Below are positions 8,958 to 53,964 of a stretch of 64,000 nucleotides of DNA, in pieces. Below the pieces are notes generated by a model. That model made no database searches and was not told where the DNA came from. It worked only from the letters and a program-made list of their open reading frames with translations. Origin of the DNA: Nanobdellota archaeon (GTDB taxonomy: Archaea; Nanobdellota; Nanobdellia; Pacearchaeales; GW2011-AR1). The number at the start of each line of letters is the position of its first letter. Position 1 is the stretch's first letter. The position numbers were made by a program, and so were the translations under genes. The stretch is from positions 7,952-71,951 of the forward strand of contig JBBSXB010000009.1 in assembly GCA_038046005.1 (NCBI GenBank), in the 5' to 3' direction.

Positions 8958-9674
8958 ATGGACACAAGTGTTCTGGAAGAGATAGGGTTGAACAAAGGCG
9001 AAGCAAAAGTATATCTTGCTCTTTTAGAATTAGGTGAGTCAAAAGTAGGTCCAATAATAGACAAGTCAGGATTAGTAAGTTCTGTTGTTCATGTAAATAT
9101 AAACAAACTGGTTGAAAATGGGTTGGCCTCTTATATTAAAAAAGGTAAAATTAAATTTTATAAAGCTGTTTCTCCAAAACAGATTCTTGATTTTATAAAA
9201 GAAAAAGAAAAGAAACTCCTAGAGATTATTCCTTTTTTAGAGGAAAAACAGAAAAAATCAGAAGGCAAGGAAGAAGCAGAGATATTTGAAGGGATTAAAG
9301 GAATAACATCAATGCTAAATCTTATTATTGAAAATTCAAAAAAAGGTGAAGAATTTTTCCTTTTTGCAACAGATATGGAAGAAAAACAAAAAGAAATACA
9401 AGAATTCTGGGAAAAATATGACTTGAAAAGAAAAGAAAAAAGGCTTATAGTCAAAGGCATAGCCCCAAAAAAACTAAGACATTTGTTCGCAAAAAGAGAA
9501 GTATTAAAAATGAAGTACACAAACTCTCCTCTTTTATCAAGCATAACTATATTCCAAGACAAAGTTGCAACTATATCTTTTGGCGAAAAACCTGTGGGAT
9601 ATTTGATAAAATCAAAGCAAGTATCAGAAATGTACAAAAATTACTTTAGGAAAATGTGGAAATCAATAAAATAA
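8958..9674 (+). CDS. TrmB-family transcriptional regulator
   Basis: N-terminal wHTH GEAKVYLALLELGESKVGPIIDKSGLVSSVVHVNINKLVENGLASY typical of TrmB; paralog of 36483..37241. Confidence 0.65.
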   Translation: MDTSVLEEIGLNKGEAKVYLALLELGESKVGPIIDKSGLVSSVVHVNINKLVENGLASYIKKGKIKFYKAVSPKQILDFIKEKEKKLLEIIPFLEEKQKKSEGKEEAEIFEGIKGITSMLNLIIENSKKGEEFFLFATDMEEKQKEIQEFWEKYDLKRKEKRLIVKGIAPKKLRHLFAKREVLKMKYTNSPLLSSITIFQDKVATISFGEKPVGYLIKSKQVSEMYKNYFRKMWKSIK

Positions 9675-26025: not shown

Positions 26026-27102
26026 TTAACCGTAAATTTCTATGCCAAGATCAGACATCTCTCTACGTGCTGGCTTGCTGTCTTCATAGCCCTTTCCAAG
26101 TACATAAGGAGACTTAACACCAGTCATTATGGTGATAACTCTAACCTTTCCGACAAAGTCTTTGCTGATTCTCGCTCCAATAATAACCTGTGCATCTGGG
26201 CTTAAGTTTTCAGAAACAATTCTACCGATAAGATCGAATTCTTCCAGCTTAAGATCAGGTCCGCAAGTTATGTGTATCAAAGCACCAGTAGCTCCTTGGT
26301 AGTCAACATCCAATAAAGGGTGTGTAAGAGCCTGCTTTACAGCTTCATTAACTCTATCTTGCGTGTCTGCTTCTCCAATTCCAATAACAGCAACTCCGCC
26401 GTCTTTCATTATTGCTGAAACGTCTGCATAGTCTAGATTAATCAAGCTAGGCAATGTTATAGTCTCAACAATACCCTTTATCATTGTACTAACTAGTTCG
26501 TTAGCGACAGCAAAGGCTTGTTCAATTGGCAACTGGCCGGCAATGTCTACTAGTCTGTTATTATCCAAAACAATACATGTGTTGGACATTTCTCTAAGCT
26601 CCTGAAGTCCGAATTCAGCTTTGTCAACTCTTGCTCTTTCAGCTTCAAAAGGCATAGTTACAACACCAATAACAACAGCACCAGTTTCTTTAGCAAGTTG
26701 AGCAATGACAGGAGCAGCACCAGTTCCGGTTCCACCACCCATTCCAGCAATTACGAACACCATGTCTGCATTAGCAACAGCTTTTTTCAAGTCAACAAGT
26801 GCTTCTTTAGCAGCTTCTCTTCCTCTTTGAGGCATTCCTCCGCATCCAAGACCTCTTGTTAATTCCTTACCAATAAGAATCTTGTCGTCAGATTTTGAAA
26901 CGCTCAAATGCAAAGCATCTGTATTTGCAGCAAAAATAGTGGCACCATTTATTCCTTTGTTGTAAAGCCAGGTTACAGCATTGCAACCCATTCCACCGAC
27001 ACCAATAACCTTGATGTTAGCTTTTCCAGCTTTCAACTCATCGAAATTAATACTGTGAGTCTCTGTCTTGTCTATGGCTTCTTTTGCAAAATCTAATACC
27101 AT
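26026..27102 (-). CDS. ftsZ: cell division GTPase FtsZ
   Basis: Tubulin signature GGGTGTG, NTD, and T7-loop NLDYADV regions. Confidence 0.95.
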   Translation of the reverse strand: MVLDFAKEAIDKTETHSINFDELKAGKANIKVIGVGGMGCNAVTWLYNKGINGATIFAANTDALHLSVSKSDDKILIGKELTRGLGCGGMPQRGREAAKEALVDLKKAVANADMVFVIAGMGGGTGTGAAPVIAQLAKETGAVVIGVVTMPFEAERARVDKAEFGLQELREMSNTCIVLDNNRLVDIAGQLPIEQAFAVANELVSTMIKGIVETITLPSLINLDYADVSAIMKDGGVAVIGIGEADTQDRVNEAVKQALTHPLLDVDYQGATGALIHITCGPDLKLEEFDLIGRIVSENLSPDAQVIIGARISKDFVGKVRVITIMTGVKSPYVLGKGYEDSKPARREMSDLGIEIYG

Positions 27103-27653: not shown

Positions 27654-28718
27654 TCAGTTCAATATGTTTCTTTTAAACCTTTCTAAATCTTTTTTTAAAA
27701 AACTTCCACCAGATGCTTTTTTATGCCCGCCAGCTAAAGCATCTTCAAGACCATTTATAGATTTTTGCAGTAAAAGATTTACATCAACATCTCCAGACTG
27801 GCTTCTTGCCGAAACCTTGCATTTTCCAGGTTCTCTTTGAGAGTCAGAAACAAAGACAATTGTTTTGCCCGGGATTTCAATAGAAAGAGTTGTGCATATT
27901 GCAGAGGTGATTCCAAATTTAGGGGCCCCATAAAAGAAAAGCAATTTTTTATTTTCATAAAATTCAGCGTTTTTTTTAAACTTGTCAATCCATTTTTTAA
28001 ATTCTTTATCAATTTCTCTTCTTGCTTTTTCCATGGATTTAATGTCTTTTTCCTTCAAAAGATTATAAACACCTTTTAAATCATCATTATAGTATATTAT
28101 CGCAGCCCCGATTGTTTGCATTAACTCCCCTGGAACTGAATCCATGATGTTATCTTCAGTAATTGAATGGTATTTTTTCTGAAGCAATTTTAAATTTTCT
28201 TCAGCAAAGTAAGACCTGTCCGCTATCAGTGTGGCTTCTAAGAGCCAATCAAGATTAGAGACGTCAAAATAATGTTTGGCTAAACCATAAATTATCAAAG
28301 CGGCACAAAAAGGGGTTTCTGCTTTTATTATGTTTTTTATATTTTTAATTTTGGAATTTATTGGATGGTGATCAATCACAAACAAATCAAAATCACTAAA
28401 GGCATCAATCAAAAAATTTATATCATCTCTTCCGTCAGCATATATATCACTCATCAAAATTTTTTTTATGCCTTCCTTTTTACATTTGCTAAAACAATTT
28501 TCTAATTCACCATAGTTGATAAGCTCTACAAATTTTGGTTTTATTCTTTTAAAATCAAGTATTTTTTCAAGAAAAAAAGCGCTCGCAAGCCCATCTAGAT
28601 CATTGTGACTTATTATTGCAACATCATCCTCTTTTGTTATCGAATCGACAAAATTCCAGAAATCTTTTTCCTGCCCCATTAAAAATTTCATCTTATTCCT
28701 TTTCCAAAACCAAAACAT
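27654..28718 (-). CDS. DHH/DHHA1-family phosphoesterase (NrnA-like nanoRNase / pAp phosphatase candidate)
   Basis: DHH motifs ISHNDLDGLASA, VIDHHP; DHHA1 motif GGHKKASGG. Confidence 0.75.
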   Translation of the reverse strand: MFWFWKRNKMKFLMGQEKDFWNFVDSITKEDDVAIISHNDLDGLASAFFLEKILDFKRIKPKFVELINYGELENCFSKCKKEGIKKILMSDIYADGRDDINFLIDAFSDFDLFVIDHHPINSKIKNIKNIIKAETPFCAALIIYGLAKHYFDVSNLDWLLEATLIADRSYFAEENLKLLQKKYHSITEDNIMDSVPGELMQTIGAAIIYYNDDLKGVYNLLKEKDIKSMEKARREIDKEFKKWIDKFKKNAEFYENKKLLFFYGAPKFGITSAICTTLSIEIPGKTIVFVSDSQREPGKCKVSARSQSGDVDVNLLLQKSINGLEDALAGGHKKASGGSFLKKDLERFKRNILN

Positions 28719-44769: not shown

Positions 44770-45684
44770 ATGGCAACATACAAAAAGAGAAATAATTTCC
44801 AGACAGATGCTCCTGTCCAGCACATAGTCTTGAAAAGACATCATAAGATTGTAATTGGAAGTTTCACAACTATAGTCATTGTTTATATGATTATTACTGC
44901 CATACTTCTAAACGGACTAATTGTAAAGCAAAGTATCAACAATAAAGATTTGACAAATAAAATAAACAGTCTCCAAGCAGACACACAAAGCAAGTTAAAT
45001 GAAGTAACTTCAGGATTGATGAAAACAAATGAACAAGTATCCTCGTTAGGCTCTCAAGTAGGTTCAATAGACAAAGAATTTTCTTCATTAAAAGCTTCTG
45101 TAAGCGAAGATTTTTCAGGAATAATTGAGCAGTTGATTCCTTCCGTCGTAACAATAAGAACAAACATAGGCCAGGGAACAGGTTTTGTAATAACAGATGA
45201 CGGATATGTAGTAACAAATGCCCACGTCCTTTCAGGAGGAAATTTTGTCCAGGCAATAAATTACAAGCAAGAAATCATTGAAGCAAATTTAGTAGGTTAC
45301 TATGAAAATTACGACATAGCTCTTTTGAAAATTAACGGAAGTTATACCCCATTAAAATTAGCAAATTCAAACAATGTGCAGATTGGAGAAAAAGTCATAG
45401 CAATTGGAAATCCTTTAGGTTTGCAATTTTCTGTCTCTCAAGGAATTGTTTCAGGAGTCCACAGATCAGGCCCAAATAATTTGTTAGCATACATCCAAAC
45501 AGATGCTGCATTAAATCCTGGAAACTCCGGCGGCCCTTTAATAGACAAAAATGGAGAAGTTGTTGGAATAAATAATTTCAAAATCGGTTCAGGAGAAAGC
45601 TTAGGATTTGCACTAGAGAGTAATTTCATAAAAGATTCTGTGAATCAAATAGCTTACAAAAACTTGAATCAAACTTTGATTTAA
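44770..45684 (+). CDS. HtrA/DegP-like trypsin-family serine protease (membrane-anchored, no PDZ)
   Basis: N-terminal TM and coiled coil; catalytic-triad context GFVITDDGYVVTNAHV, YDIALLKI, GNSGGPLID. Confidence 0.8.
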   Translation: MATYKKRNNFQTDAPVQHIVLKRHHKIVIGSFTTIVIVYMIITAILLNGLIVKQSINNKDLTNKINSLQADTQSKLNEVTSGLMKTNEQVSSLGSQVGSIDKEFSSLKASVSEDFSGIIEQLIPSVVTIRTNIGQGTGFVITDDGYVVTNAHVLSGGNFVQAINYKQEIIEANLVGYYENYDIALLKINGSYTPLKLANSNNVQIGEKVIAIGNPLGLQFSVSQGIVSGVHRSGPNNLLAYIQTDAALNPGNSGGPLIDKNGEVVGINNFKIGSGESLGFALESNFIKDSVNQIAYKNLNQTLI

Positions 45685-45731
45685 CATTCTCAAAACCTTA
45701 ATTTAATAAACCCCAATCAATTTATACTAAA

Positions 45732-47186
45732 ATGCAGGAAAAACAGAACAAAGAAGGATTAACAGTCAAGAAAGATGAGAATTTCTCAGAATGGTATTCA
45801 CAAATTGTCCAGAAATGCGAGCTGGCAGACCTCAGATACAATGTCAAAGGTTTTTTAGTTTTTCAGCCATGGTCTGTCCTTTCTATGGAAAAAATGTACT
45901 ATTATCTTGAAAAAGTATTGCGAAGAAAAAAACACAAACCATATTTTTACCCAACAGTTATTCCAGAAAGCAATTTCAAAAAAGAATCTTCTCATGTCAA
46001 AGGTTTTACGCCGGAAGTTTTTTGGGTTACACACGGCGGAACAAAAGAACTGGAAGAGAGACTTGCTTTAAGACCAACTTCAGAAACTGCGTTTTACCAG
46101 ATGTTTGCATTATGGATAAGAAGCTACAAAGACCTTCCATTTAAGACGTATCAAAGAGCTCAAGTTTTTAGATATGAAACAAAAGCCACAAGACCTTTCC
46201 TAAGAAGCAGAGAATTTCACTGGATAGAAACCCATTGTGTTCACGCAACAGAAAAAGACGCTTTGACCCAGGTTAATGAAGACATGGAAACGACTGAGGA
46301 AGTTTTACATCAAATTTTTGGGTTGCCATTCATGTTTTTTGAAAGACCTTCTTGGGATAAATTTGCAGGAGCATACAGAACATTCGCAGCAGATGTTTTG
46401 AATCCAGATGGAAAAGTTGTCCAACAACCTTCAACCCACATACTCTCTCCTAGTTTTGCAAAAGCATTTGGCATAAAATACAAAGACAAAGACGGCAAAG
46501 ACAAAGGAGTCTATACAACATGCTACGGCCCAGCTGTTTCTAGGATAATGGCAAGTGTTGCAATAGTCCACGGAGATGATAAAGGATTAAAATTCCCCTG
46601 GGAAATTGCCCCAGTCCAAGTTGTAATAGTCCCCATAGGTGAAGAAAAAGAAGTAATTGAAAAAGCGAAAGTCCTTGAAAGTAAAATAAGTGAATTAGCC
46701 TCGGTAGAGATAGACGAAACAAACAAAAGACCGGGAGAAAAATTCAACTATTGGGAAATGAAGGGAGTCCCTTTAAGAATTGATATGGGAATGAATGATA
46801 TAAAGAAAAAACAATTAACAATATTTAGAAGAGATTTAGACAAAAAAGAAACCATTCAAGAAAAAAACATTTTAAGCTACATAGAAGAAACTTCAAAAGA
46901 AATAACAAAAAATCTCAGAGAAAAAGCTGACAAGATTTTTAACAACAGAATAAAACTAGCAAAATCCAAAGAAGAAATGAAAAAAATAATAGAGCAAGGT
47001 GGAATAGTTCAATGCAATTTTTGCTCTGTAGAAAAAGAAGGAATAAAATGTGCAGAAGTCATAGAAAAAGAAATTGGTGCTGATGTTAGAGGAACCAGAT
47101 TAGATGAAACAAAAAAACCTTCAGGAAATTGTGCAATATGCAATAAAAAGGCAAACCATGTTGTTTACATCGCCAGAAGCTACTGA
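45732..47186 (+). CDS. proS: prolyl-tRNA synthetase (archaeal/eukaryotic type)
   Basis: Class IIa motifs (RPTSETAFYQMF, FRYE); C-terminal zinc-binding domain ending ...CAICNKKANHVVYIARSY. Confidence 0.9.
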   Translation: MQEKQNKEGLTVKKDENFSEWYSQIVQKCELADLRYNVKGFLVFQPWSVLSMEKMYYYLEKVLRRKKHKPYFYPTVIPESNFKKESSHVKGFTPEVFWVTHGGTKELEERLALRPTSETAFYQMFALWIRSYKDLPFKTYQRAQVFRYETKATRPFLRSREFHWIETHCVHATEKDALTQVNEDMETTEEVLHQIFGLPFMFFERPSWDKFAGAYRTFAADVLNPDGKVVQQPSTHILSPSFAKAFGIKYKDKDGKDKGVYTTCYGPAVSRIMASVAIVHGDDKGLKFPWEIAPVQVVIVPIGEEKEVIEKAKVLESKISELASVEIDETNKRPGEKFNYWEMKGVPLRIDMGMNDIKKKQLTIFRRDLDKKETIQEKNILSYIEETSKEITKNLREKADKIFNNRIKLAKSKEEMKKIIEQGGIVQCNFCSVEKEGIKCAEVIEKEIGADVRGTRLDETKKPSGNCAICNKKANHVVYIARSY

Positions 47187-47483
47187 ATATCTACAGCTAT
47201 TTGTTTTAGCTCATCTTCTAATCTTAAGGTCAGGCTAATCAATGACTCAAACTCTTTCTGCAAATATTCTATTTCCTTATCTTCTTTTTCCATTTTATTT
47301 GATCAGAAAATTTCCCTGAATTAACTAAGAACTAACTCCTTAATCTAATCCAGCAAAAACTCTGAATTAAATTAAAGTGACTTTTTACATTTGATATTAA
47401 GAGCTATAGCTAGAAAAATATTCAAATCTGTATCTTCCAGCCTATCCATAATAAATTAAGTTATATCTGATATTTATATTTAT

Positions 47484-48524
47484 CTATACTAAAGTTTTGA
47501 TTTTATCAACAAATTTTTCCAAACTGTCTGCACTCATCTGTCCGCCAACAGCATCTTTATGGCCACCGCCCGTCGCACCATCAATCCCCTCAAGAGCTTC
47601 CAAAAATTTCTCCCTAATATTGCTTCCCCTAAGAGAGATATTAACCTTGCTGCCTTTAAGATAGGCAACAACCACTATCTTGTCAGGAAAAAGATATTTG
47701 ACATTATTCGCCAACTCTCCGCTGACACTCAAATCTCCGCCGTATTTAAAAAATAAAACCCGGCCATTTTTTTTATAAACTTTTTTAGCCTTTTCTAAAA
47801 GCTGAACGTATTTTTTTCTAATCTCTAATGACTTCTTGTGCATATTGCGATTTTTTCCATTTTCTTCCAGAATGTCATAAGGCGATTTCACCTTTACCAG
47901 ATATCTGAGCATATTAACCACATTAGTTGTTGAGTCCTTAAGTCCATTGCTCATTATAAATGCAACTTCTCCTATCTTAGACTCATAAAGAACTTTAAAT
48001 GGATCCTTAGTCTCTACTGCAAGTTCTGGAAATTTCTCCTTAAAATTATCATAAAAACCAGGGAGATAGCTGTCAGAAACAGAACCTATTAATGCTATCC
48101 ACTCATCCTCTTTTTTTTTAGTGGCATAATAACACAAAACAGTTGTCGGCTCATTTGATTTGGGATTATTAAAAATAGGATTGTAATAGGAAACAAACTC
48201 TGGAATTTCCTCCCCATCAATCTCATGATGGTCAATCCAAACAATAGGAATATTAACTTCTTTAGCTCTCTCAAAAAATCCTTTAGACACAACCGGTTTA
48301 TCTAGGATAAAGATGTAATCTCCATTCAACTCTTGCACTTTTCTAAAATAATTCTCATCCAGAGCAGGAAAAGATTTTATTACCACCCCTTTCCCTCGGC
48401 CAATATACCTTTGAAGGATCAGAAAAGCGCACAATCCATCAGGATCATTATCAAAAAAGAAAACAGGATTTTGGGCTTTTTCCAGATGTTCTCTGATTTC
48501 TTTGATTTGTACATCATTCAACAT
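47484..48524 (-). CDS. DHH/DHHA1-family phosphoesterase (second paralog)
   Basis: DNDPDGLCA, WIDHHE, DHHA1 GGGHKDAVGG. Confidence 0.75.
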   Translation of the reverse strand: MLNDVQIKEIREHLEKAQNPVFFFDNDPDGLCAFLILQRYIGRGKGVVIKSFPALDENYFRKVQELNGDYIFILDKPVVSKGFFERAKEVNIPIVWIDHHEIDGEEIPEFVSYYNPIFNNPKSNEPTTVLCYYATKKKEDEWIALIGSVSDSYLPGFYDNFKEKFPELAVETKDPFKVLYESKIGEVAFIMSNGLKDSTTNVVNMLRYLVKVKSPYDILEENGKNRNMHKKSLEIRKKYVQLLEKAKKVYKKNGRVLFFKYGGDLSVSGELANNVKYLFPDKIVVVAYLKGSKVNISLRGSNIREKFLEALEGIDGATGGGHKDAVGGQMSADSLEKFVDKIKTLV

Positions 48525-48581
48525 TGCAGAAAAACGTTAGAGGCCTTTAAGAGGTTTTTCCTATTATATTTTTCAAAGCTC

Positions 48582-48596
48582 GGACGCTACGCGTCC
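48582..48596 (-). other. GC-rich hairpin GGACGC-TAC-GCGTCC spanning the stop codon of 48587..49330
   Basis: Perfect 6-bp GC-rich inverted repeat in an otherwise AT-rich spacer between two co-oriented genes. Confidence 0.3.
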
Positions 48597-49330
48597 TCGC
48601 ACACCCCAAAAGCATAGCCGTTGTTGTCACCAAACCAGCCGTCGCCATCGACATCCAACCTGTTGCGACCAAAGTCTCTGTCGGAGTAAAGACTAGCAAC
48701 TCTTAAAGCAGGTTCTTTAGACTTATCAAAATTAAAAACATTAACTCCTTTCTTGTAAAATTTAGGTGAAGAAATTTCTCTAAGCTTTTCAGCAGTTTTG
48801 TTTTCAATATGTTCTAATATTCTTGCTAATCCGCCTTCACAGAAACTATCACAATCTTGAGTTCCTTGTCTGAATGTTTCGTAAGGTGCAAATCCAAAAT
48901 CATTGTCTAAAAGATAAATCCCGTTTACTTTTCTGTCTGAAGTTAAAAATACTTTAAGAACATTTTCATCAGTTATTGGATTTCCTTGAGCACCTTTTGG
49001 AGGATTTGCAAAAACTCCCTCGCTTGTTCTTACAATGTATCCTAGCTGAAGCCATCTCGGGTCAAAAATCTGCGGTTTAGCTAAATTCCCAAAATCATAA
49101 GCAGCAGCTGAAACTGATTCAGAAGTTGTTGGAGCTTTAAAATTAATCTCTTTTCCTGTTTGTGGATGAGAATAATCTTTTTTCATTTCAGAAATATTTA
49201 TACTAAAATAATTTGACCCAAAAGCCGGATGAGAAACAACCAATCCTTTATTTTTATGAGGAACTACAAGTAAATCTCTTAGCTCATATTCGGACCTTTT
49301 TGCCGTGATTATTCCATATTGCGTTTCCAT
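48587..49330 (-). CDS. conserved hypothetical protein (247 aa) between DisA-like cyclase and the DHH phosphoesterase
   Basis: ORF track; no motif recognised; C-terminal GC-rich Gly/Asp-rich tail DVDGDGWFGDNNGYAFGVCEDA. Confidence 0.4.
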   Translation of the reverse strand: METQYGIITAKRSEYELRDLLVVPHKNKGLVVSHPAFGSNYFSINISEMKKDYSHPQTGKEINFKAPTTSESVSAAAYDFGNLAKPQIFDPRWLQLGYIVRTSEGVFANPPKGAQGNPITDENVLKVFLTSDRKVNGIYLLDNDFGFAPYETFRQGTQDCDSFCEGGLARILEHIENKTAEKLREISSPKFYKKGVNVFNFDKSKEPALRVASLYSDRDFGRNRLDVDGDGWFGDNNGYAFGVCEDA

Positions 49331-49375
49331 GGTTTTCCTATTAACTCGGACTTTTTAAACTTTATTGTGCAGAAA

Positions 49376-50530
49376 TCAAATCTTCTTCCCTTCCAATATC
49401 TTTTCCTTCAAAGATTCCAGATTCCTCTTCAAAGACTCGGCAACAGATTGCTTACCGAGCACAGTCACCAAAACCTGGTCACTTGCCCCAAATAGCTTTC
49501 CCAAAGACTTAAAGTGATTCATCAAAATTCTAAGGTCTTTGTCCAAAAACCCTGTCTTCCTCAAAATTCTAAAACCCCTAGGAAAAACAGATTTATCATG
49601 CAATTCTTCAAAAATAAGTCTAAGCAAATTAGAAGTTTCTATAAGAAAATCATAATTCATTGATCTTAGTATAATGTCAATTTTTGAATGAGATGAACCA
49701 AAATAGTCTCTAAGTATCAATTCTCTTTCATTGTCAAGATTCCTTGTCAACTCCTTGACCCTCATGCTGACTATCAGCCCTTCTTTTCCAAGCTCAATAA
49801 GATATCTCTTTATTGTATCTGTGATTCTCCTTATCATTTCTTTCCTCTGCAAAACATTGCAAACATCACTTGTTGAGACCAGATCAGTAATTTCCAGAAC
49901 ATTCAGGTGCACAATTATGTCATCTAAGACCTCTTTTTGTTTCTCAAGAATCTGCAGGCTTTCTGTAGCCCTTCTCAAGATCTCAGAACTATTCTCTAGA
50001 ACCTGCCTATGCTCTCCCCAATACAAAGATATTTTATTTCTTCTTTCGGAAACAGCAACAACGATTGTCCCAAGCTGTTTGGCAGTTCTCTCGGCAGCTT
50101 TGTGCCTTGTCCCAGTCTCACTTGTCTTGAATGAATCTTTAGGAACAAGCAATGTATTTGCATAAAGAATTTTTTTCAAATCCTTGGAAAGTACAATAGC
50201 TCCATCCATTTTCGCAAGCTCCACAAGTTTTTGGGCGCTGAACCTGCAATTAATTCTGAACCCACCATCAATGATTTTAGACATCCCCTCTTTTTCAACA
50301 ACAATCAACGCCCCCATTCTTGCCCGCATAATATCATCTAAAGCAGTCCTCATAGCAGTTCCAGGAGAAAATATTTTCATTATCTCTAAAAAGTTTGAGT
50401 CATTCTTTTCTTGATTCTTTTGAAGTAATTTGTCCTTTGTATGTTCACCCACAGGCAAGTTAACTAAAGGTTTTGTCTCCTGAATTTTTTCAGGAATCTT
50501 CTCTTTTTTTTCTAAGATTACAGAGTCCAT
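49376..50530 (-). CDS. DisA-like diadenylate cyclase (DAC domain + helical linker + HhH-like C-terminus)
   Basis: DAC signatures DGAIVLS and TGTRHKAAERTAKQLGTIVVAVSE (RHxxA); C-terminal LGKLFGASDQVLVTVLGKQSVAESL HhH-like. Confidence 0.75.
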   Translation of the reverse strand: MDSVILEKKEKIPEKIQETKPLVNLPVGEHTKDKLLQKNQEKNDSNFLEIMKIFSPGTAMRTALDDIMRARMGALIVVEKEGMSKIIDGGFRINCRFSAQKLVELAKMDGAIVLSKDLKKILYANTLLVPKDSFKTSETGTRHKAAERTAKQLGTIVVAVSERRNKISLYWGEHRQVLENSSEILRRATESLQILEKQKEVLDDIIVHLNVLEITDLVSTSDVCNVLQRKEMIRRITDTIKRYLIELGKEGLIVSMRVKELTRNLDNERELILRDYFGSSHSKIDIILRSMNYDFLIETSNLLRLIFEELHDKSVFPRGFRILRKTGFLDKDLRILMNHFKSLGKLFGASDQVLVTVLGKQSVAESLKRNLESLKEKILEGKKI

Positions 50531-50649
50531 GCTTATTTTAACTACTCCATATATATAAAACTTTACAGAAATTTTTTAAATCTTTCTTTTTTGTTTTTAT
50601 TATTTTAAAGAGACACAATGGAAAACTTCTTAAATGAAAAAACCTCACT

Positions 50650-51645
50650 TTGAGAATGGTTGACATAAAAAAAGCGCTTGAAAAAGCAAGAAAAGAAGTT
50701 TTCAAAAAGTCAAAAGAAGTAAAAGGAACAGAAATAAGAGGTCCGGACTTTAACAAAGAGATGTCTCTAAATGAATTAATAAATTCTTACAAAAATATTG
50801 GATTCCAGGCATCAAACCTCCATAAAGCTATAGAAATAATAAAAAAAATGCGAGAAGATAATGCAAAAATATTTCTAGCTTACACATCAGGGATAGTCAG
50901 CTCAGGATTAAGAGACATTGTAAAATATTTGGCCGAAAAAAAATTAGTGGATGTTTTGATAACAACAACTGGGGGAATTGAAGAAGATATAATAAAAACA
51001 TTAAAGCCTTTTGTGCTTGGAAAATTTGACGCAGATGGAAAAGAATTAAGAGAGCGAGGAATTAACAGAATAGGAAATATTTTTGTCCCTAATGATAGGT
51101 ATGTTCTTTTTGAGGATTGGATAAATCCCCAATTAGAAGAGTTATTAAAATTGCAGAAAAAAGGAACTAACCTGACTCCTTCAAAGATTATAGATTTTCT
51201 TGGAGATAAAATAAACAATAAAGAATCAATTTATTATTGGGCTTCAAAAAATAAAATTCCAGTGTTTACGCCAGCCCCTTTAGATGGTTCTTTAGGAGAT
51301 ATGGTCTACTTTTTTAAACAGTCAAACCCAGAGTTTAGAATAGATGTGACTGAAGACCTAAAAAAATTAATTGATATATCAATAAATTCTGAGAAAGTTG
51401 GAATAATAATTTTGGGGGCTGGAATTGTAAAGCATGTGGCATGTAATGCAAACTTGTTCAGAGGCGGAGCTGATTATGCTGTTTACATAAATGCTGCCCA
51501 AGAGTTTGATGGAAGCGATGCTGGAGCAACTCCTGATGAAGCCGTCTCATGGGGAAAAATCAAAGGAGAAGAATCAAACTCTGTGAAAGTTTTCTCAGAT
51601 GCTACGTTGGTTTTCCCATTAATAGTGGCAGAAGCCTTCAAGTAA
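50650..51645 (+). CDS. dys: deoxyhypusine synthase
   Basis: Near-collinear with eukaryotic/archaeal DHS: TTTGGIEEDIIKT, NRIGNIFVPNDRY, PAPLDGSLGDM, GADYAVYINAAQEFDGSDAGATPDEAVSWGKI. Confidence 0.95.
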   Translation: MRMVDIKKALEKARKEVFKKSKEVKGTEIRGPDFNKEMSLNELINSYKNIGFQASNLHKAIEIIKKMREDNAKIFLAYTSGIVSSGLRDIVKYLAEKKLVDVLITTTGGIEEDIIKTLKPFVLGKFDADGKELRERGINRIGNIFVPNDRYVLFEDWINPQLEELLKLQKKGTNLTPSKIIDFLGDKINNKESIYYWASKNKIPVFTPAPLDGSLGDMVYFFKQSNPEFRIDVTEDLKKLIDISINSEKVGIIILGAGIVKHVACNANLFRGGADYAVYINAAQEFDGSDAGATPDEAVSWGKIKGEESNSVKVFSDATLVFPLIVAEAFK

Positions 51646-51701
51646 AGCATATTTTCAAAAACGAAAATCTTTTTAAATGAAGGTTTCATTAAAAATTTAC
51701 A

Positions 51702-51917
51702 ATGAACAAATGGAGTGAACTTTTGCTGGGCCTTATCCTTTTCATAGGAATTATTTTACTAGCTTGGTTCTCGTCAGCAAATGGTTGGGCAATATTCGGA
51801 AAAAATCTTAATCTTTTAACTTCTGCATGGATTGTGTTAAAAGGATTTTTGTTCTGGATGATTTTCTTTGTAGGTTTGCTTTTGATAATTCTGGGAATAA
51901 ACGATTTGAGAAACTAA
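51702..51917 (+). CDS. small membrane protein
   Basis: Two TM helices. Confidence 0.3.
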   Translation: MNKWSELLLGLILFIGIILLAWFSSANGWAIFGKNLNLLTSAWIVLKGFLFWMIFFVGLLLIILGINDLRN

Positions 51918-52561
51918 CCGACAAAAATTATTAGAGTTGTCTCGATTATTGCAGCAATGACCAAAAGAGGAAACACTATCAATAAGAATATTCTTAATGA
52001 ATTAATCAGCCATTCTTTAAAGGAACTTTTTTTTCCATGTATGAAAAGATAAGATCCTAACTTAATTCCAAGCCCCAGGGAAATAAAGACAGCAGGAAGT
52101 TCAAAAATTCCGTGAGGCAAGATTTTCCATAAGATGCCTATCCCACTTACTTTCACACTTATGGCTGCAACAAACCCCAAGATATACCCGTTAAGTAATA
52201 TTGATATAAGAGGGAAAAGCCCAAAGAAAATTCCAAAAGCTAATCCAAAAAAACTGCTTTGGATATTGTTAAAGAATATAAAACCAAGAAGCTGAAGATA
52301 ATTCATTCCTTCTGTCCGTATAATCAAATTTTCCAAATATACTAAAAGTTGTGAATTAAGATCAATTTTAAATAAAGATTTAAACAACAATTGAAGAATA
52401 TCTTGGAAGAAAAATCCTATAACCCCAAAAATAAAGAAAAGTAAAATTGTAGCATAAATAAAATCTCGGGATTCTTTTAAAAATGAAAAACATCTTCGGT
52501 ATTCAGAAATTATTGAAAAATGTTTTTTTCTGAAAGAAACCTTCACTCTTTTTTTCGGCAT
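51914..52561 (-). CDS. SpoIIM-like (DUF95) integral membrane protein
   Basis: HGIFELPAVFISLGLG motif characteristic of the stage II sporulation protein M family. Confidence 0.45.
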   Translation of the reverse strand: MPKKRVKVSFRKKHFSIISEYRRCFSFLKESRDFIYATILLFFIFGVIGFFFQDILQLLFKSLFKIDLNSQLLVYLENLIIRTEGMNYLQLLGFIFFNNIQSSFFGLAFGIFFGLFPLISILLNGYILGFVAAISVKVSGIGILWKILPHGIFELPAVFISLGLGIKLGSYLFIHGKKSSFKEWLINSLRIFLLIVFPLLVIAAIIETTLIIFVG

Positions 52562-52591
52562 TGAAGAAAAAAGTTAACACATTATAAAAAC

Positions 52592-53257
52592 TTAACTAAA
52601 AGCCTGACTGATGTAAAGAGTCTTCTTTTTGTATTTCTTCTTGAGATAAAGACCATAAAAAATACCAAGAATAAATCCTCCAAGATGTGCAGTATTACCT
52701 ATCGAAACATTTCCAGCAATAGAAATCAGCCACAAAACAATCAACATTCCTGGCGCAGCATATTTCATTTTTATAGGGATTGGGATGAACATCAAGTAAA
52801 CTGGAAGATTTGGAGTTAACAGCATTAACAACCCTAGAAGCCCAAATATTGCCCCAGATGCTCCAACAGCATATGCACTAAGTTCTCCAGGCAATATAAA
52901 AGCGGAAACTACAAATAATAAGCCAGCAAAAAGTCCTGCAGCCAAATAAAAGTAAAGATATCTTTTAGACCCTAAAATCCTTTCAATTAAACCCCCTATA
53001 AAAAATAAGGAAAGCATATTTGCAAAAATGTGGAAAAAATTTGCATGCATAAACATACTTGTTAAAAAAGTCCAGAGATATTGTCCGTGAATTATATTGT
53101 CAGGTTTTAATGCTATAAAGTCTATAAATTTGGGATTAAGTGAAAGAAGTATAGAAAACAAAATAAAAGCAGCTACATTAATCAGCACTATTATCAAGGT
53201 TACGCTCAGACTAGAGAGAAAACTTTTTCTTTTTGGAACAGCATAAACCTGGGCCAT
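52592..53257 (-). CDS. rhomboid-family intramembrane serine protease
   Basis: GASGAIFGLLG (catalytic Ser) and downstream AHLGGFILG (catalytic His). Confidence 0.85.
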   Translation of the reverse strand: MAQVYAVPKRKSFLSSLSVTLIIVLINVAAFILFSILLSLNPKFIDFIALKPDNIIHGQYLWTFLTSMFMHANFFHIFANMLSLFFIGGLIERILGSKRYLYFYLAAGLFAGLLFVVSAFILPGELSAYAVGASGAIFGLLGLLMLLTPNLPVYLMFIPIPIKMKYAAPGMLIVLWLISIAGNVSIGNTAHLGGFILGIFYGLYLKKKYKKKTLYISQAFS

Positions 53258-53964
53258 TATCTTTTTTTCTTAGGTTTTATTTTTTTAGAATTATTTTTAG
53301 GCTTCTTACTTACTTTTTTATTGGCCTTAAACAATTTTTTCTTTTTTGTTTTAACAAATTTATGAGATTTATTTTTCTTTATTTTTGTTTTTCCAAGTTT
53401 TGCCTCTTTCTTTTTTGGCTTTTTAACAATCGACAATTTTTCATTTTCAGTTTTAATTTCCTGGTCAACTTCATTAAGTTCTACCTGTAATTTGCTAAGT
53501 CCTTTTTTTAGATCATTAAGTATGGGAACATTATCTAATAGAACAAAAATATTCCCGCATTCTTGACAAGTAAAGTCTTTGAGTAATGCATTTTCTTCAT
53601 TAATTTCCACATGGCACAAAGGACAATAATAGAATTGTCTCGCCTCCCTATTCTTTACTTGATTATTCATTTGAGAAATTTTATTCAGTAGCTCATTTCT
53701 ATAAAATTCCATTGCTTTCACAGGTTCTATCTTCCAAAAATAAGTGTACCATCCTTTTTTCTTATCCTTCTTCCTGACGAAGCTTACAAGACCGCGATCA
53801 GAAATTTTGTACAAAATATTTCTAGTTTGGTTTATAGTTATATTTAATTTCTTTGCTATCAAAAATTCATTGACATGTTGATTGCTGTCTAACAACTCAA
53901 CAATGCCCTCGGCCGGTTTTCCAGCAATTATCACTACTACTTCTCTAAGAATTTTTTTAAGCAT
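53257..53964 (-). CDS. tfe: transcription factor E (TFE, TFIIE-alpha homolog) with Lys-rich C-terminal tail
   Basis: N-terminal winged helix (IAKKLNITINQTRNILYKISDRGLVSF...YTYFWKIE) and zinc ribbon CPLCHVEIN...CQECGN. Confidence 0.8.
   Translation of the reverse strand: MLKKILREVVVIIAGKPAEGIVELLDSNQHVNEFLIAKKLNITINQTRNILYKISDRGLVSFVRKKDKKKGWYTYFWKIEPVKAMEFYRNELLNKISQMNNQVKNREARQFYYCPLCHVEINEENALLKDFTCQECGNIFVLLDNVPILNDLKKGLSKLQVELNEVDQEIKTENEKLSIVKKPKKKEAKLGKTKIKKNKSHKFVKTKKKKLFKANKKVSKKPKNNSKKIKPKKKR

Follow-up and report, generated by a model that had tools for sequence, protein, structure and literature searches.

A conserved disA-DHH1 gene pair in a DPANN archaeon and the probable orphan DGR target inserted between its members

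The 64-kb stretch of DNA analysed here, which we call the window, comes from a tiny groundwater archaeon. Three ORFs follow one another closely on its minus strand, exactly where an earlier note on this DNA had placed them: disA (384 aa), a gene that we call X (247 aa) and DHH1 (346 aa). The gaps that it gave are also borne out, with 45 nt between disA and X (49331-49375) and 62 nt between X and DHH1 (48525-48586). The features of the locus, in the order of transcription of these genes, are the following.

49376..50530, minus strand: disA, DNA-integrity-scanning diadenylate cyclase, full length, with DAC domain, DisA linker and C-terminal region
48563..49375, minus strand: insertion of ~813 nt in the ancestral spacer of 43 nt, holding the putative X promoter, the X ORF, the VR and the hairpin
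49351..49363, minus strand: archaeal TATA-like element AAAGTTTAAAAAG, ~20-30 nt upstream of the X ATG
48587..49330, minus strand: X, an AvpA-like C-type-lectin-fold protein of the DGR variable-protein family, 247 aa
48606..48700, minus strand: segment equivalent to the VR, coding for X residues ~211-241, where the family is hypervariable at its C-terminus
48602..48613, minus strand: IMH-like VR end, GCTTTTGG followed by GGTG with the boundary between the two, encoding the conserved AFGV strand
48582..48596, minus strand: GC-rich hairpin GGACGC-GTA-GCGTCC overlapping the X stop codon, the DGR target hairpin or cruciform after the VR
48525..48562, minus strand: ancestral disA-DHH spacer, kept downstream of the insertion and aligning to the whole spacer of L030 (AGGAAAAACCTCTTAAAGGCCTCTA[A/G]CGTTTTT...)
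47484..48524, minus strand: DHH1, compact DHH/DHHA1 phosphoesterase of the archaeal RecJ-like clade, 346 aa, all catalytic motifs intact, conserved downstream partner of disA

The earlier note called the product of 49376-50530 a DisA, and correctly so. The protein matches the NCBIfam equivalog NF010009 with 344 bits (cut-off 201), covering model positions 3-353 of 357, and Pfam recognises both the DisA linker (109 bits) and the DAC domain (96 bits), the profile match by which the note had proposed to check its call. Pfam calls no separate HhH domain. The DGA motif is present here and at 78 of 80 DPANN disA loci, and RHK replaces the canonical RHR, as GTRHK does at 71 of the 80 loci (RHQ is found at four). 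This change is conservative and typical of the lineage. The protein shares with bacterial DisA (T. maritima, B. subtilis) the full-length equivalog match, the succession of DAC, linker and C-terminal region, and DGA. It differs by its DPANN archaeal host, by RHK and by a low-complexity N-terminal extension of ~40 residues. The neighbourhood differs too: bacterial disA is typically linked to radA, whereas here the downstream partner is a DHH/DHHA1 gene. By homology, this full-length diadenylate cyclase most likely makes c-di-AMP, the replacement of RHR being a point against its activity. NCBI and JGI already use the names DisA or diadenylate cyclase for proteins of Nanoarchaeota and Pacearchaeota MAGs. 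A noisy term search returned no relevant paper on DisA in DPANN, and the archaeal c-di-AMP literature examined does not discuss it, which is no proof of novelty. DPANN have been treated as devoid of the archaeal cyclase DacZ (PMC12699388).

The description of 47484-48524 as a DHH/DHHA1 phosphoesterase holds as well. Pfam gives DHHA1 37 bits against a cut-off of 25.9 and DHH 27.8 bits, marginally under its cut-off of 28.1, and the motifs DNDPDG, DHH (98-100) and GGGH (319-322) are all present and invariant in 38 homologues. The DHH and DHHA1 domains, joined by a long linker helix (226-248), make up the entire protein. The earlier note had regarded a grouping with RecJ/GAN-type nucleases, rather than with NrnA/GdpP, as speaking against its reading. 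DHH1 does group with RecJ/GAN-type proteins and with an archaeal PAP phosphatase, and none of the characterised c-di-AMP PDEs falls in its group; no NrnA/GdpP family model matches it, and neither sequence nor structure places it in that group. A role as c-di-AMP/pApA hydrolase nevertheless stays plausible. DHH1 also falls short of the RecJ family proper: its best score against the NCBIfam RecJ models is 42 bits, far under cut-offs of 360-900. Its identity to archaeal RecJ-like enzymes (Mth RecJ-Cdc45 7BHI, Mja RecJ2, GAN) and to the PAP phosphatase of M. thermolithotrophicus (8A8K) is ~15%, and neither the CID nor the OB insertion found in RecJ-Cdc45 and GAN is present in DHH1. The closest fold is that of the same-sized archaeal PAP phosphatase, an enzyme of a small nucleotide. 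The stand-alone DHH/DHHA1 PDEs (B. burgdorferi DhhP, S. aureus Pde2/NrnA, T. maritima TmPDE) are not its closest relatives by sequence or fold, and DHH1 has no TrkA_N domain, unlike PyaPDE (TrkA_N-DHH-DHHA1), the sole characterised archaeal PDE. The window also holds, as reported earlier, a second DHH/DHHA1 paralogue (27654-28718, minus strand), with both domains found by Pfam, upstream of FtsZ (26026-27102).

disA and DHH1 are a real conserved pair in a housekeeping block. DHH1 lies directly downstream of disA on the same strand at 47 of 52 DPANN disA loci (42 of 46 non-redundant ones), at a median distance of 46 nt, normally within 0-100 nt and in many cases at 0-13 nt. In DPANN Nanoarchaeota (MAGs of Woesearchaeales/Pacearchaeales type) the block comprises, in this order, TFIIE-alpha, rhomboid, SpoIIM, deoxyhypusine synthase, DisA when present, DHH1, ProRS on the opposite strand and a trypsin-like protease. 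The distance and orientation of the flanking deoxyhypusine synthase and ProRS genes change from locus to locus, whereas the disA-DHH1 pair remains tight. The two genes are probably co-transcribed. Yet, the association, strong from the side of disA, is not reciprocal: of four DHH1 orthologues sampled independently, two (L114, L116) stand in the same block with no disA. DHH1 is thus not dependent on an adjacent disA.

X interrupts this pair. In the nearest relatives (L030 and L031, with DisA 94% and DHH1 86% identical) only 43 nt separate the disA stop from the DHH1 ATG. Both align with the window on either side of a gap of ~813 nt, and homology resumes at AGGAAAAACC (48562-48553). X was found between disA and DHH1 at none of 80 other disA loci of the DPANN set. 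The TATA-like element upstream of its ATG suggests that X has its own TATA-type promoter; a similar element, GAAA.GTTTATAAA, precedes the ATG at essentially all X loci, mostly by 20-35 nt and by up to ~50 nt. The genome has acquired, within the 43-nt spacer, a self-contained cassette of ~813 nt carrying X. Two exact direct repeats, TAATAGGAAAA (11 nt) and TTTCTGCA (8 nt), flank the X ORF. We considered them as target-site duplications and set them aside, since such repeats may arise by chance in AT-rich DNA and one of them overlaps a likely ribosome-binding site. X also occupies the disA-DHH1 spacer of a distant genome, L008, whose DisA is only 50% identical and whose hairpin is nearly the same (AGACGC-GTA-GCGTCT). 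A purely random insertion does not predict this second occupancy. One might speculate that X and other orphan DGR-target genes move as cassettes and prefer certain sites, which would account for X in the same spacer of two distant genomes, but we think this quite improbable.

What, then, is X? The earlier note found no recognisable family, and at the level of sequence this stands: X has no match in Pfam, NCBIfam, PADLOC, PHROGs or PDB sequences, and no signal peptide or transmembrane segment. Beyond that level the statement fails, as X has the C-type-lectin fold presenting variable residues and is a DGR variable protein of AvpA type. Its family, unannotated, counts at least 355 cluster representatives in DPANN. 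Among ~25 independent X loci the only recurrent neighbour is an RT 200-400 nt downstream, found in eight of them and matching the PHROG 'Reverse transcriptase' at 9.7e-117. These eight loci are complete DGR cassettes (VR, TR, RT), with TR/VR pairs of 87-107 nt and 9-23 mismatches, almost all at TR adenines; at L024, tandem X paralogues share one cassette. The family agrees with canonical DGR cassettes (Mtd/TR/Brt of Bordetella phage BPP-1; the DPANN DGRs of Paul et al. 2015, PMC4372165) in its VP-TR-RT order, adenine-specific TR-to-VR mismatches, IMH/IMH* boundary and hairpin after the VR. The inverted repeat GTCTTAG...CTAAGAC encloses the TR in its DPANN cassettes. The copy in the window differs in being the target half only. 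We conclude that the members of the X family are variable proteins with an AvpA-like lectin fold, and that roughly half of them are uncoupled from any retroelement. At three loci (L006, L007, L009) X lies 5' of Mre11-Rad50. A place in a DNA-repair module was considered and rejected: the three are closely related (L007 and L009 being the same in sequence), L007 and L009 carry an apparent remnant of a deleted TR/RT (GTCTTAGCTGCTAAGAC), and L006 keeps a TR with no RT.

[quoted passage not shown] 2016, PMC5006420). X is only 13% identical to it, and a profile of X does not detect AvpA by sequence. The VR of X lies at the extreme C-terminus, with six residues beyond it, and the stop codon falls within the hairpin, whereas AvpA has a 46-residue extension containing the hairpin (PMC5006420). 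X also differs from AvpA in that the 84 kb examined contain neither a TR nor an RT cognate to it.

The 3' end of X carries all the cis marks of a DGR target. The C-terminal ~35 columns of the family alignment (A1) are hypervariable and the remainder averages 55% identity. The VR of X is C-terminal and rich in AAY-derived codons. Its alignments with TRs from six foreign DGRs give 69-77% identity, and the mismatches are enriched at TR adenines (Fisher p 0.0015-0.03). At nearly all X loci the VR ends in ...GC(T)TTTGG before the boundary and GGTG after it; in the TRs, ...GCTTTTGG is followed by AATGGCT. Just as the IMH-like end in X encodes the conserved AFGV strand, the IMH of AvpA encodes a non-variable beta5 strand, RFxGV (PMC5006420). 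The GC-rich hairpin spotted in the earlier note is there (48596-48582, over the TAG stop at 48589-48587), and hairpins downstream of the VR have been described for archaeal DGRs. In 16 of 23 X loci, the window included, a GC-rich stem with 5 bp or more and no mispair lies 8-19 nt past the VR end; the loop counts 3 nt in 15 loci and 4 nt in L001. The stems themselves differ (CTGGC/GCCAG, GCGCC/GGCGC, GTCCC/GGGAC and others) and the position is conserved. It is this conservation of position across loci, and nothing else, that makes the hairpin significant. In folding, the one in the window is not thermodynamically exceptional (z = -0.8), and we discarded the idea of a terminator or an unusually stable structure. 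We read it as the DGR target hairpin, not a terminator.

X is an orphan within the 84 kb searched, on a contig of 251 kb. Neither a VR-like repeat (blastn of the X VR) nor an RT (tblastn with seven DGR RTs) occurs in the rest of the window, and extensions of ~9.5 kb past each of its ends hold no cognate TR. The right-hand extension (L112) has no RT. The left-hand one (L110), with 12.2 kb of 100% identity to the window, does carry a DGR, 7.1 kb outside the window. Its TR matches not X but another VP, all 11 mismatches falling at adenines, and its RT, of the same clade as the X-linked RTs (55-63% identity), has an in-frame TAA stop. About 11 other X loci are orphans too, and AvpA-like proteins with no DGR are on record in Woesearchaeota. 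Since no matching TR is found in these 84 kb, the VR of X is probably frozen. X would then be a ligand-binding scaffold whose binding-site sequence was fixed by past adenine mutagenesis.

Two other accounts of X must be weighed. The earlier note saw the three genes as a dedicated c-di-AMP turnover operon, with the middle protein as receptor, regulator or PDE partner. The genes are indeed co-oriented with short gaps, disA and DHH1 are truly linked, and the order DisA-X-DHH recurs in L008. But L008 is the only other place where it does. X is missing from all 80 other disA loci, including the relative with the 94%-identical DisA, and the note itself had held that the reading would suffer if the three-gene order were not conserved, which it is not. 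The ~25 X loci lie in unrelated contexts (DGR RT, Mre11-Rad50, assorted others), X has the fold and the family of DGR variable proteins, and it appears to have its own promoter. As the linkage of X to disA and DHH1 is not conserved, the operon idea is largely refuted. It survives for disA and DHH1 and fails for X, which is a DGR variable protein rather than a c-di-AMP component; that the three genes form such an operon is very improbable. In the other account X is an active target: a TR and an RT that lie beyond these 84 kb, at some other place in the genome, would still diversify its VR in trans. The perfect IMH-like end and the intact hairpin would fit continued use as a target, the genome holds a DGR of the right RT clade, and the tandem pair of L024 shows that X paralogues can share one cassette. 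Yet, in the only DGR seen the TR is non-cognate and the RT contains an in-frame stop, no VR-like repeat lies in the window or its extensions, and the 90% cluster of X contains one single protein sequence, on three contigs. We find this account unlikely, if less so than the three-gene operon. Hence, we favour with reasonable confidence the view that the locus holds two separate things: a conserved disA-DHH1 pair and an inserted orphan, probably frozen, DGR variable-protein gene.

In our preferred reading DHH1 may hydrolyse small adenylates (pApA and/or c-di-AMP, possibly pAp or nanoRNA) as the degradative partner of DisA, a proposal for which we see slightly less than an even chance. We give about the same chance to a role as RecJ-like nuclease or in housekeeping. 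DHH1 would then be unrelated to c-di-AMP: a RecJ-clade ssDNA/RNA exonuclease, a nanoRNase, a pAp phosphatase or a nuclease partner for DNA scanning by DisA, and disA would have joined a conserved block. The tightness of the pair and the fold shared with an enzyme of a small nucleotide have to be set against the RecJ/GAN-type grouping and the DHH1 loci devoid of disA, and we rate this alternative, too, just short of even. The wider proposal, that DPANN of Woesearchaeales/Pacearchaeales type run a bacterial-type DisA c-di-AMP pathway with a co-transcribed compact RecJ-clade DHH/DHHA1 protein as dedicated hydrolase, is somewhat less probable still.

These results correct a plausible case of guilt by association, the gene between a cyclase and a phosphoesterase being an inserted orphan DGR target. 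The X family bears on how ultra-small symbionts use, and later fix, hypervariable binding proteins. The tight disA-DHH/DHHA1 pair found across many DPANN genomes makes c-di-AMP synthesis and turnover in these archaea testable. If DHH1 proved to be the hydrolase, it would represent a new class of c-di-AMP/pApA phosphodiesterase and part of the first c-di-AMP circuit in DPANN.

The three genes lie in a row on the minus strand of low-GC DNA (about 32% in the window). Their limits, their gaps of 45 nt (disA/X) and 62 nt (X/DHH1) and the hairpin over the stop codon of X agree exactly with the description in the earlier note:

49376-50530, minus strand: disA ORF, 384 aa
48587-49330, minus strand: ORF of X, the middle gene
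47484-48524, minus strand: DHH1 ORF, the DHH/DHHA1 gene
48596-48582, minus strand: hairpin GGACGC-GTA-GCGTCC, overlapping the TAG stop of X

That note took the row for a candidate three-gene c-di-AMP turnover operon. Our results correct this reading: disA and DHH1 do form a pair, probably transcribed together, X stands outside this module, and X is an orphan target of a diversity-generating retroelement (DGR).

The first gene is, as proposed, a DisA-like diadenylate cyclase: its product scores 344 bits against the NCBIfam DisA equivalog (cut-off 201), spans nearly the whole model and carries the Pfam DAC and DisA-linker domains. The annotation is not new, and close homologues in many Nanoarchaeota and Pacearchaeota MAGs are already named DisA or diadenylate cyclase by NCBI and JGI. 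The archaeal c-di-AMP papers that we consulted handle DisA as a bacterial class, and in one of them the archaeal cyclase DacZ is stated to be absent from DPANN (PMC12699388).

We scanned 80 loci encoding DisA relatives (53-95% identity). The DGA motif is kept in 78 of them, and the canonical RHR has become RHK in 71 and RHQ in 4. In 52 of the loci there is room for a DHH1 orthologue downstream, and in 47 of these one directly follows disA in the same orientation (42/46 after de-replication, median gap 46 nt). X is found in none of the 80. The operon idea thus stands for disA and DHH1 and fails for X, and with it the suggestion that X is a c-di-AMP component. Nor is the three-gene order conserved, since among about 25 X loci DisA-X-DHH recurs in a single other one, L008. 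We found no description of a conserved disA-DHH1 pairing in DPANN in the searchable literature.

The nearest relatives, loci L030 and L031 (DisA 94%, DHH1 86%, deoxyhypusine synthase 92% and prolyl-tRNA synthetase, ProRS, 91% identical to the window), have a disA-DHH1 spacer of 43 nt that aligns with window positions 48562-48525. Hence, about 813 nt (49375-48563), X included, were inserted into this spacer. X carries its own predicted promoter-like element, AAAGTTTAAAAAG in the window, which is conserved upstream of X in essentially all X loci. Unrelated genes occasionally occupy the spot of X in other disA loci (L034, L055, L064, L099); in the last, a toxin-antitoxin-like pair (L099:5026-6558) sits directly downstream of disA, in the usual place of DHH1.

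The sequence of X has no match in Pfam, NCBIfam, PADLOC, PHROGs or PDB sequences, and the protein is 100% identical to NCBI AABW51_04985 from a DPANN 'Nanoarchaeota archaeon' MAG, where its contig measures up to 251 kb. Its family is well conserved (299 matches at 53-66% identity, at least 355 cluster representatives), with about 210 conserved residues in the alignment and the last 35 or so hypervariable; the AlphaFold model built from this alignment is confident (pLDDT 88, pTM 0.88). We clustered the ORFs flanking X across about 25 independent X loci. The sole recurrent neighbour, present in 8 loci, is a protein of 360-430 aa encoded in the same orientation 200-400 nt downstream, and it is a reverse transcriptase (RT; Pfam RVT_1; PHROG 1423, 9.7e-117). 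All 8 RT loci carry a second copy of the 3' end of X (87-107 nt, 72-89% identity) in the interval between X and RT. Where the two copies differ, the downstream one almost always has an adenine, the hallmark of a DGR with its variable region (VR) and template repeat (TR). The VR ends in ...GCTTTTGG followed by GGTG, whereas the TR continues from ...GCTTTTGG into AATGGCT, which makes an IMH/IMH*-type boundary. X belongs to a sequence family that is new but of a known kind, the variable proteins resembling AvpA, the Nanoarchaeota DGR protein with a C-type-lectin fold.

Two further elements accompany these repeats. In 16 of 23 loci a GC-rich stem, perfectly paired over at least 5 bp and nearly always closed by a 3-nt loop, stands 8-19 nt past the VR end; its sequence varies from locus to locus. 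Post-VR hairpins of this sort have been reported for archaeal DGRs, and the hairpin over the stop of X is this element; taken alone, it is energetically ordinary (z = -0.8). In the X-RT intervals of L002, L011, L012, L015, L017, L022 and L024, the TR lies between the arms of a conserved inverted repeat: TTGTCTTAG precedes it, and CTAAGAC/CTAAGAT comes about 15-20 nt past it. The TR is immediately followed by AATGGCTCTAGC. In the DGR RNA this arrangement around the TR probably forms a structural element.

Some members of the family differ in other respects. The homologue P0014 has an N-terminal extension (MAITMMVAGMVMLSGC...) resembling a lipoprotein signal with a lipobox, and such a signal is absent from most members, window X included. 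Single genomes may hold at least two paralogues (L009 and L025, L021 and L023, L004 and L020), and in L024:7998-9415 a tandem pair of X copies precedes a single TR and RT. A small toxin-antitoxin-like pair (HicAB) lies near X in L001:1410-1850.

Complete cassettes are found at 8 loci, a TR without RT at 2, and about 11 are orphans like the window X. These orphans agree with the AvpA-like proteins lacking a DGR that were reported before from Woesearchaeota (PMC5006420), so that the state of X is already known for such proteins. In the closest relatives of window X (L006, L007, L009), X lies just upstream of Mre11-Rad50. L006:6047-6136 retains a TR (14/14 mismatches at adenines) and lacks the RT. 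In L007:5741-5900 and in L009, which has the same sequence, only GTCTTAG-CTG-CTAAGAC is left, the inverted repeat that elsewhere brackets TRs; it looks like the scar of a deleted TR and RT.

In the window, the VR-equivalent of X (48606-48700, minus strand) aligns to foreign TRs and differs from them preferentially at TR adenines (Fisher p 0.0015-0.03), and the 64 kb hold neither a second VR copy nor an RT. Contigs 100% identical to the window, retrieved via its end-of-window proteins, add about 9.5 kb per side. The left extension (L110, whose position 9504 is window position 1) carries a DGR 7.1 kb outside the window, its parts spanning 6.1-8.2 kb to the left:

L110:1323-3393, minus strand: DGR on the left extension
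L110:3393-2689, minus strand: variable protein, 235 aa, of a family other than X
L110:2791-2711, minus strand: VR
L110:2453-2373, minus strand: TR, 11/11 mismatches to the VR at TR adenines
L110:2378-1323, minus strand: RT, with an in-frame TAA after ...RIVHHA

This RT is 55-63% identical to the X-linked RTs, and its in-frame TAA marks either a pseudogene or an assembly error. One might speculate that X is diversified from a distant TR elsewhere in the genome. The L110 TR has no match to the VR of X, and the X sequence is identical on all three contigs that bear it; we consider such diversification unlikely, and X is probably frozen as a DGR target.

The shared insertion site in L008:3818-7155 (GCA_053534555.1) is puzzling. 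This genome is distant (DisA 50%, DHH1 66%, X 59.5% identical to the window), X lies in the same disA/DHH1 spacer with a 370-nt gap after it, and the post-VR hairpin, AGACGC-GTA-GCGTCT, is nearly that of the window. A preferred site may have been hit twice independently, an old insertion may have been lost many times over, or the lineages may have exchanged X laterally. The X ORF lies between two pairs of exact direct repeats (given in X sense):

49333-49343 and 48556-48566: TAATAGGAAAA, 11 nt
49368-49375 and 48525-48532: TTTCTGCA, 8 nt

GTCCGAG also occurs on both sides of X. All these repeats may have been left by the insertion process, or may be coincidental in AT-rich DNA.

The catalytic DHH and DHHA1 motifs of DHH1 are all invariant among homologues, and its structure model is very confident (pLDDT 93). 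The earlier note placed it in the DHH/DHHA1 family, which includes c-di-AMP/pApA phosphodiesterases. Sequence searches matched only RecJ-type models and structures, weakly, and Foldseek ranked RecJ-Cdc45, RecJ2, GAN and bacterial RecJ (1e-18 to 1e-13) above Pde2/NrnA (1e-10 to 1e-7); DHH1 therefore groups with the archaeal RecJ-like clade and not with NrnA/GdpP. The window paralogue next to FtsZ (27654-28718) is also RecJ/GAN-like and shares 25% identity with DHH1, in the C-terminal domain only. The genes around DHH1 form a housekeeping block conserved across divergent DPANN genomes:

44770-53964 in the window, also in L008 and L114-L117: TFIIE-alpha, rhomboid, SpoIIM, deoxyhypusine synthase, [DisA], DHH1, ProRS (opposite strand), trypsin-like protease

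Looking the other way, from DHH1 to disA, we examined four DHH1 orthologues on long contigs. Two directly follow disA (L115, L117), and two lie in the same block without it (L114, L116). The block thus has DHH1 as a constant part and disA as a frequent one that is tightly attached. An ornithine decarboxylase is inserted in the block of L115, and in L116 DisA is replaced by an APH/choline-kinase-like gene.

What DHH1 does can be read in two ways. A RecJ-like or housekeeping role would fit its clade and its constant place in the block. True RecJ and GAN have OB and CID domains and DHH1 has neither; its closest structural relative is an archaeal PAP phosphatase, which acts on a small nucleotide. 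A role in hydrolysis of pApA or c-di-AMP is a reasonable if tentative hypothesis, based on genomic association and family chemistry rather than on membership of a known phosphodiesterase family, and the RecJ-like or housekeeping role has about the same probability. The conserved disA-DHH1 pairing makes c-di-AMP signalling in DPANN testable.
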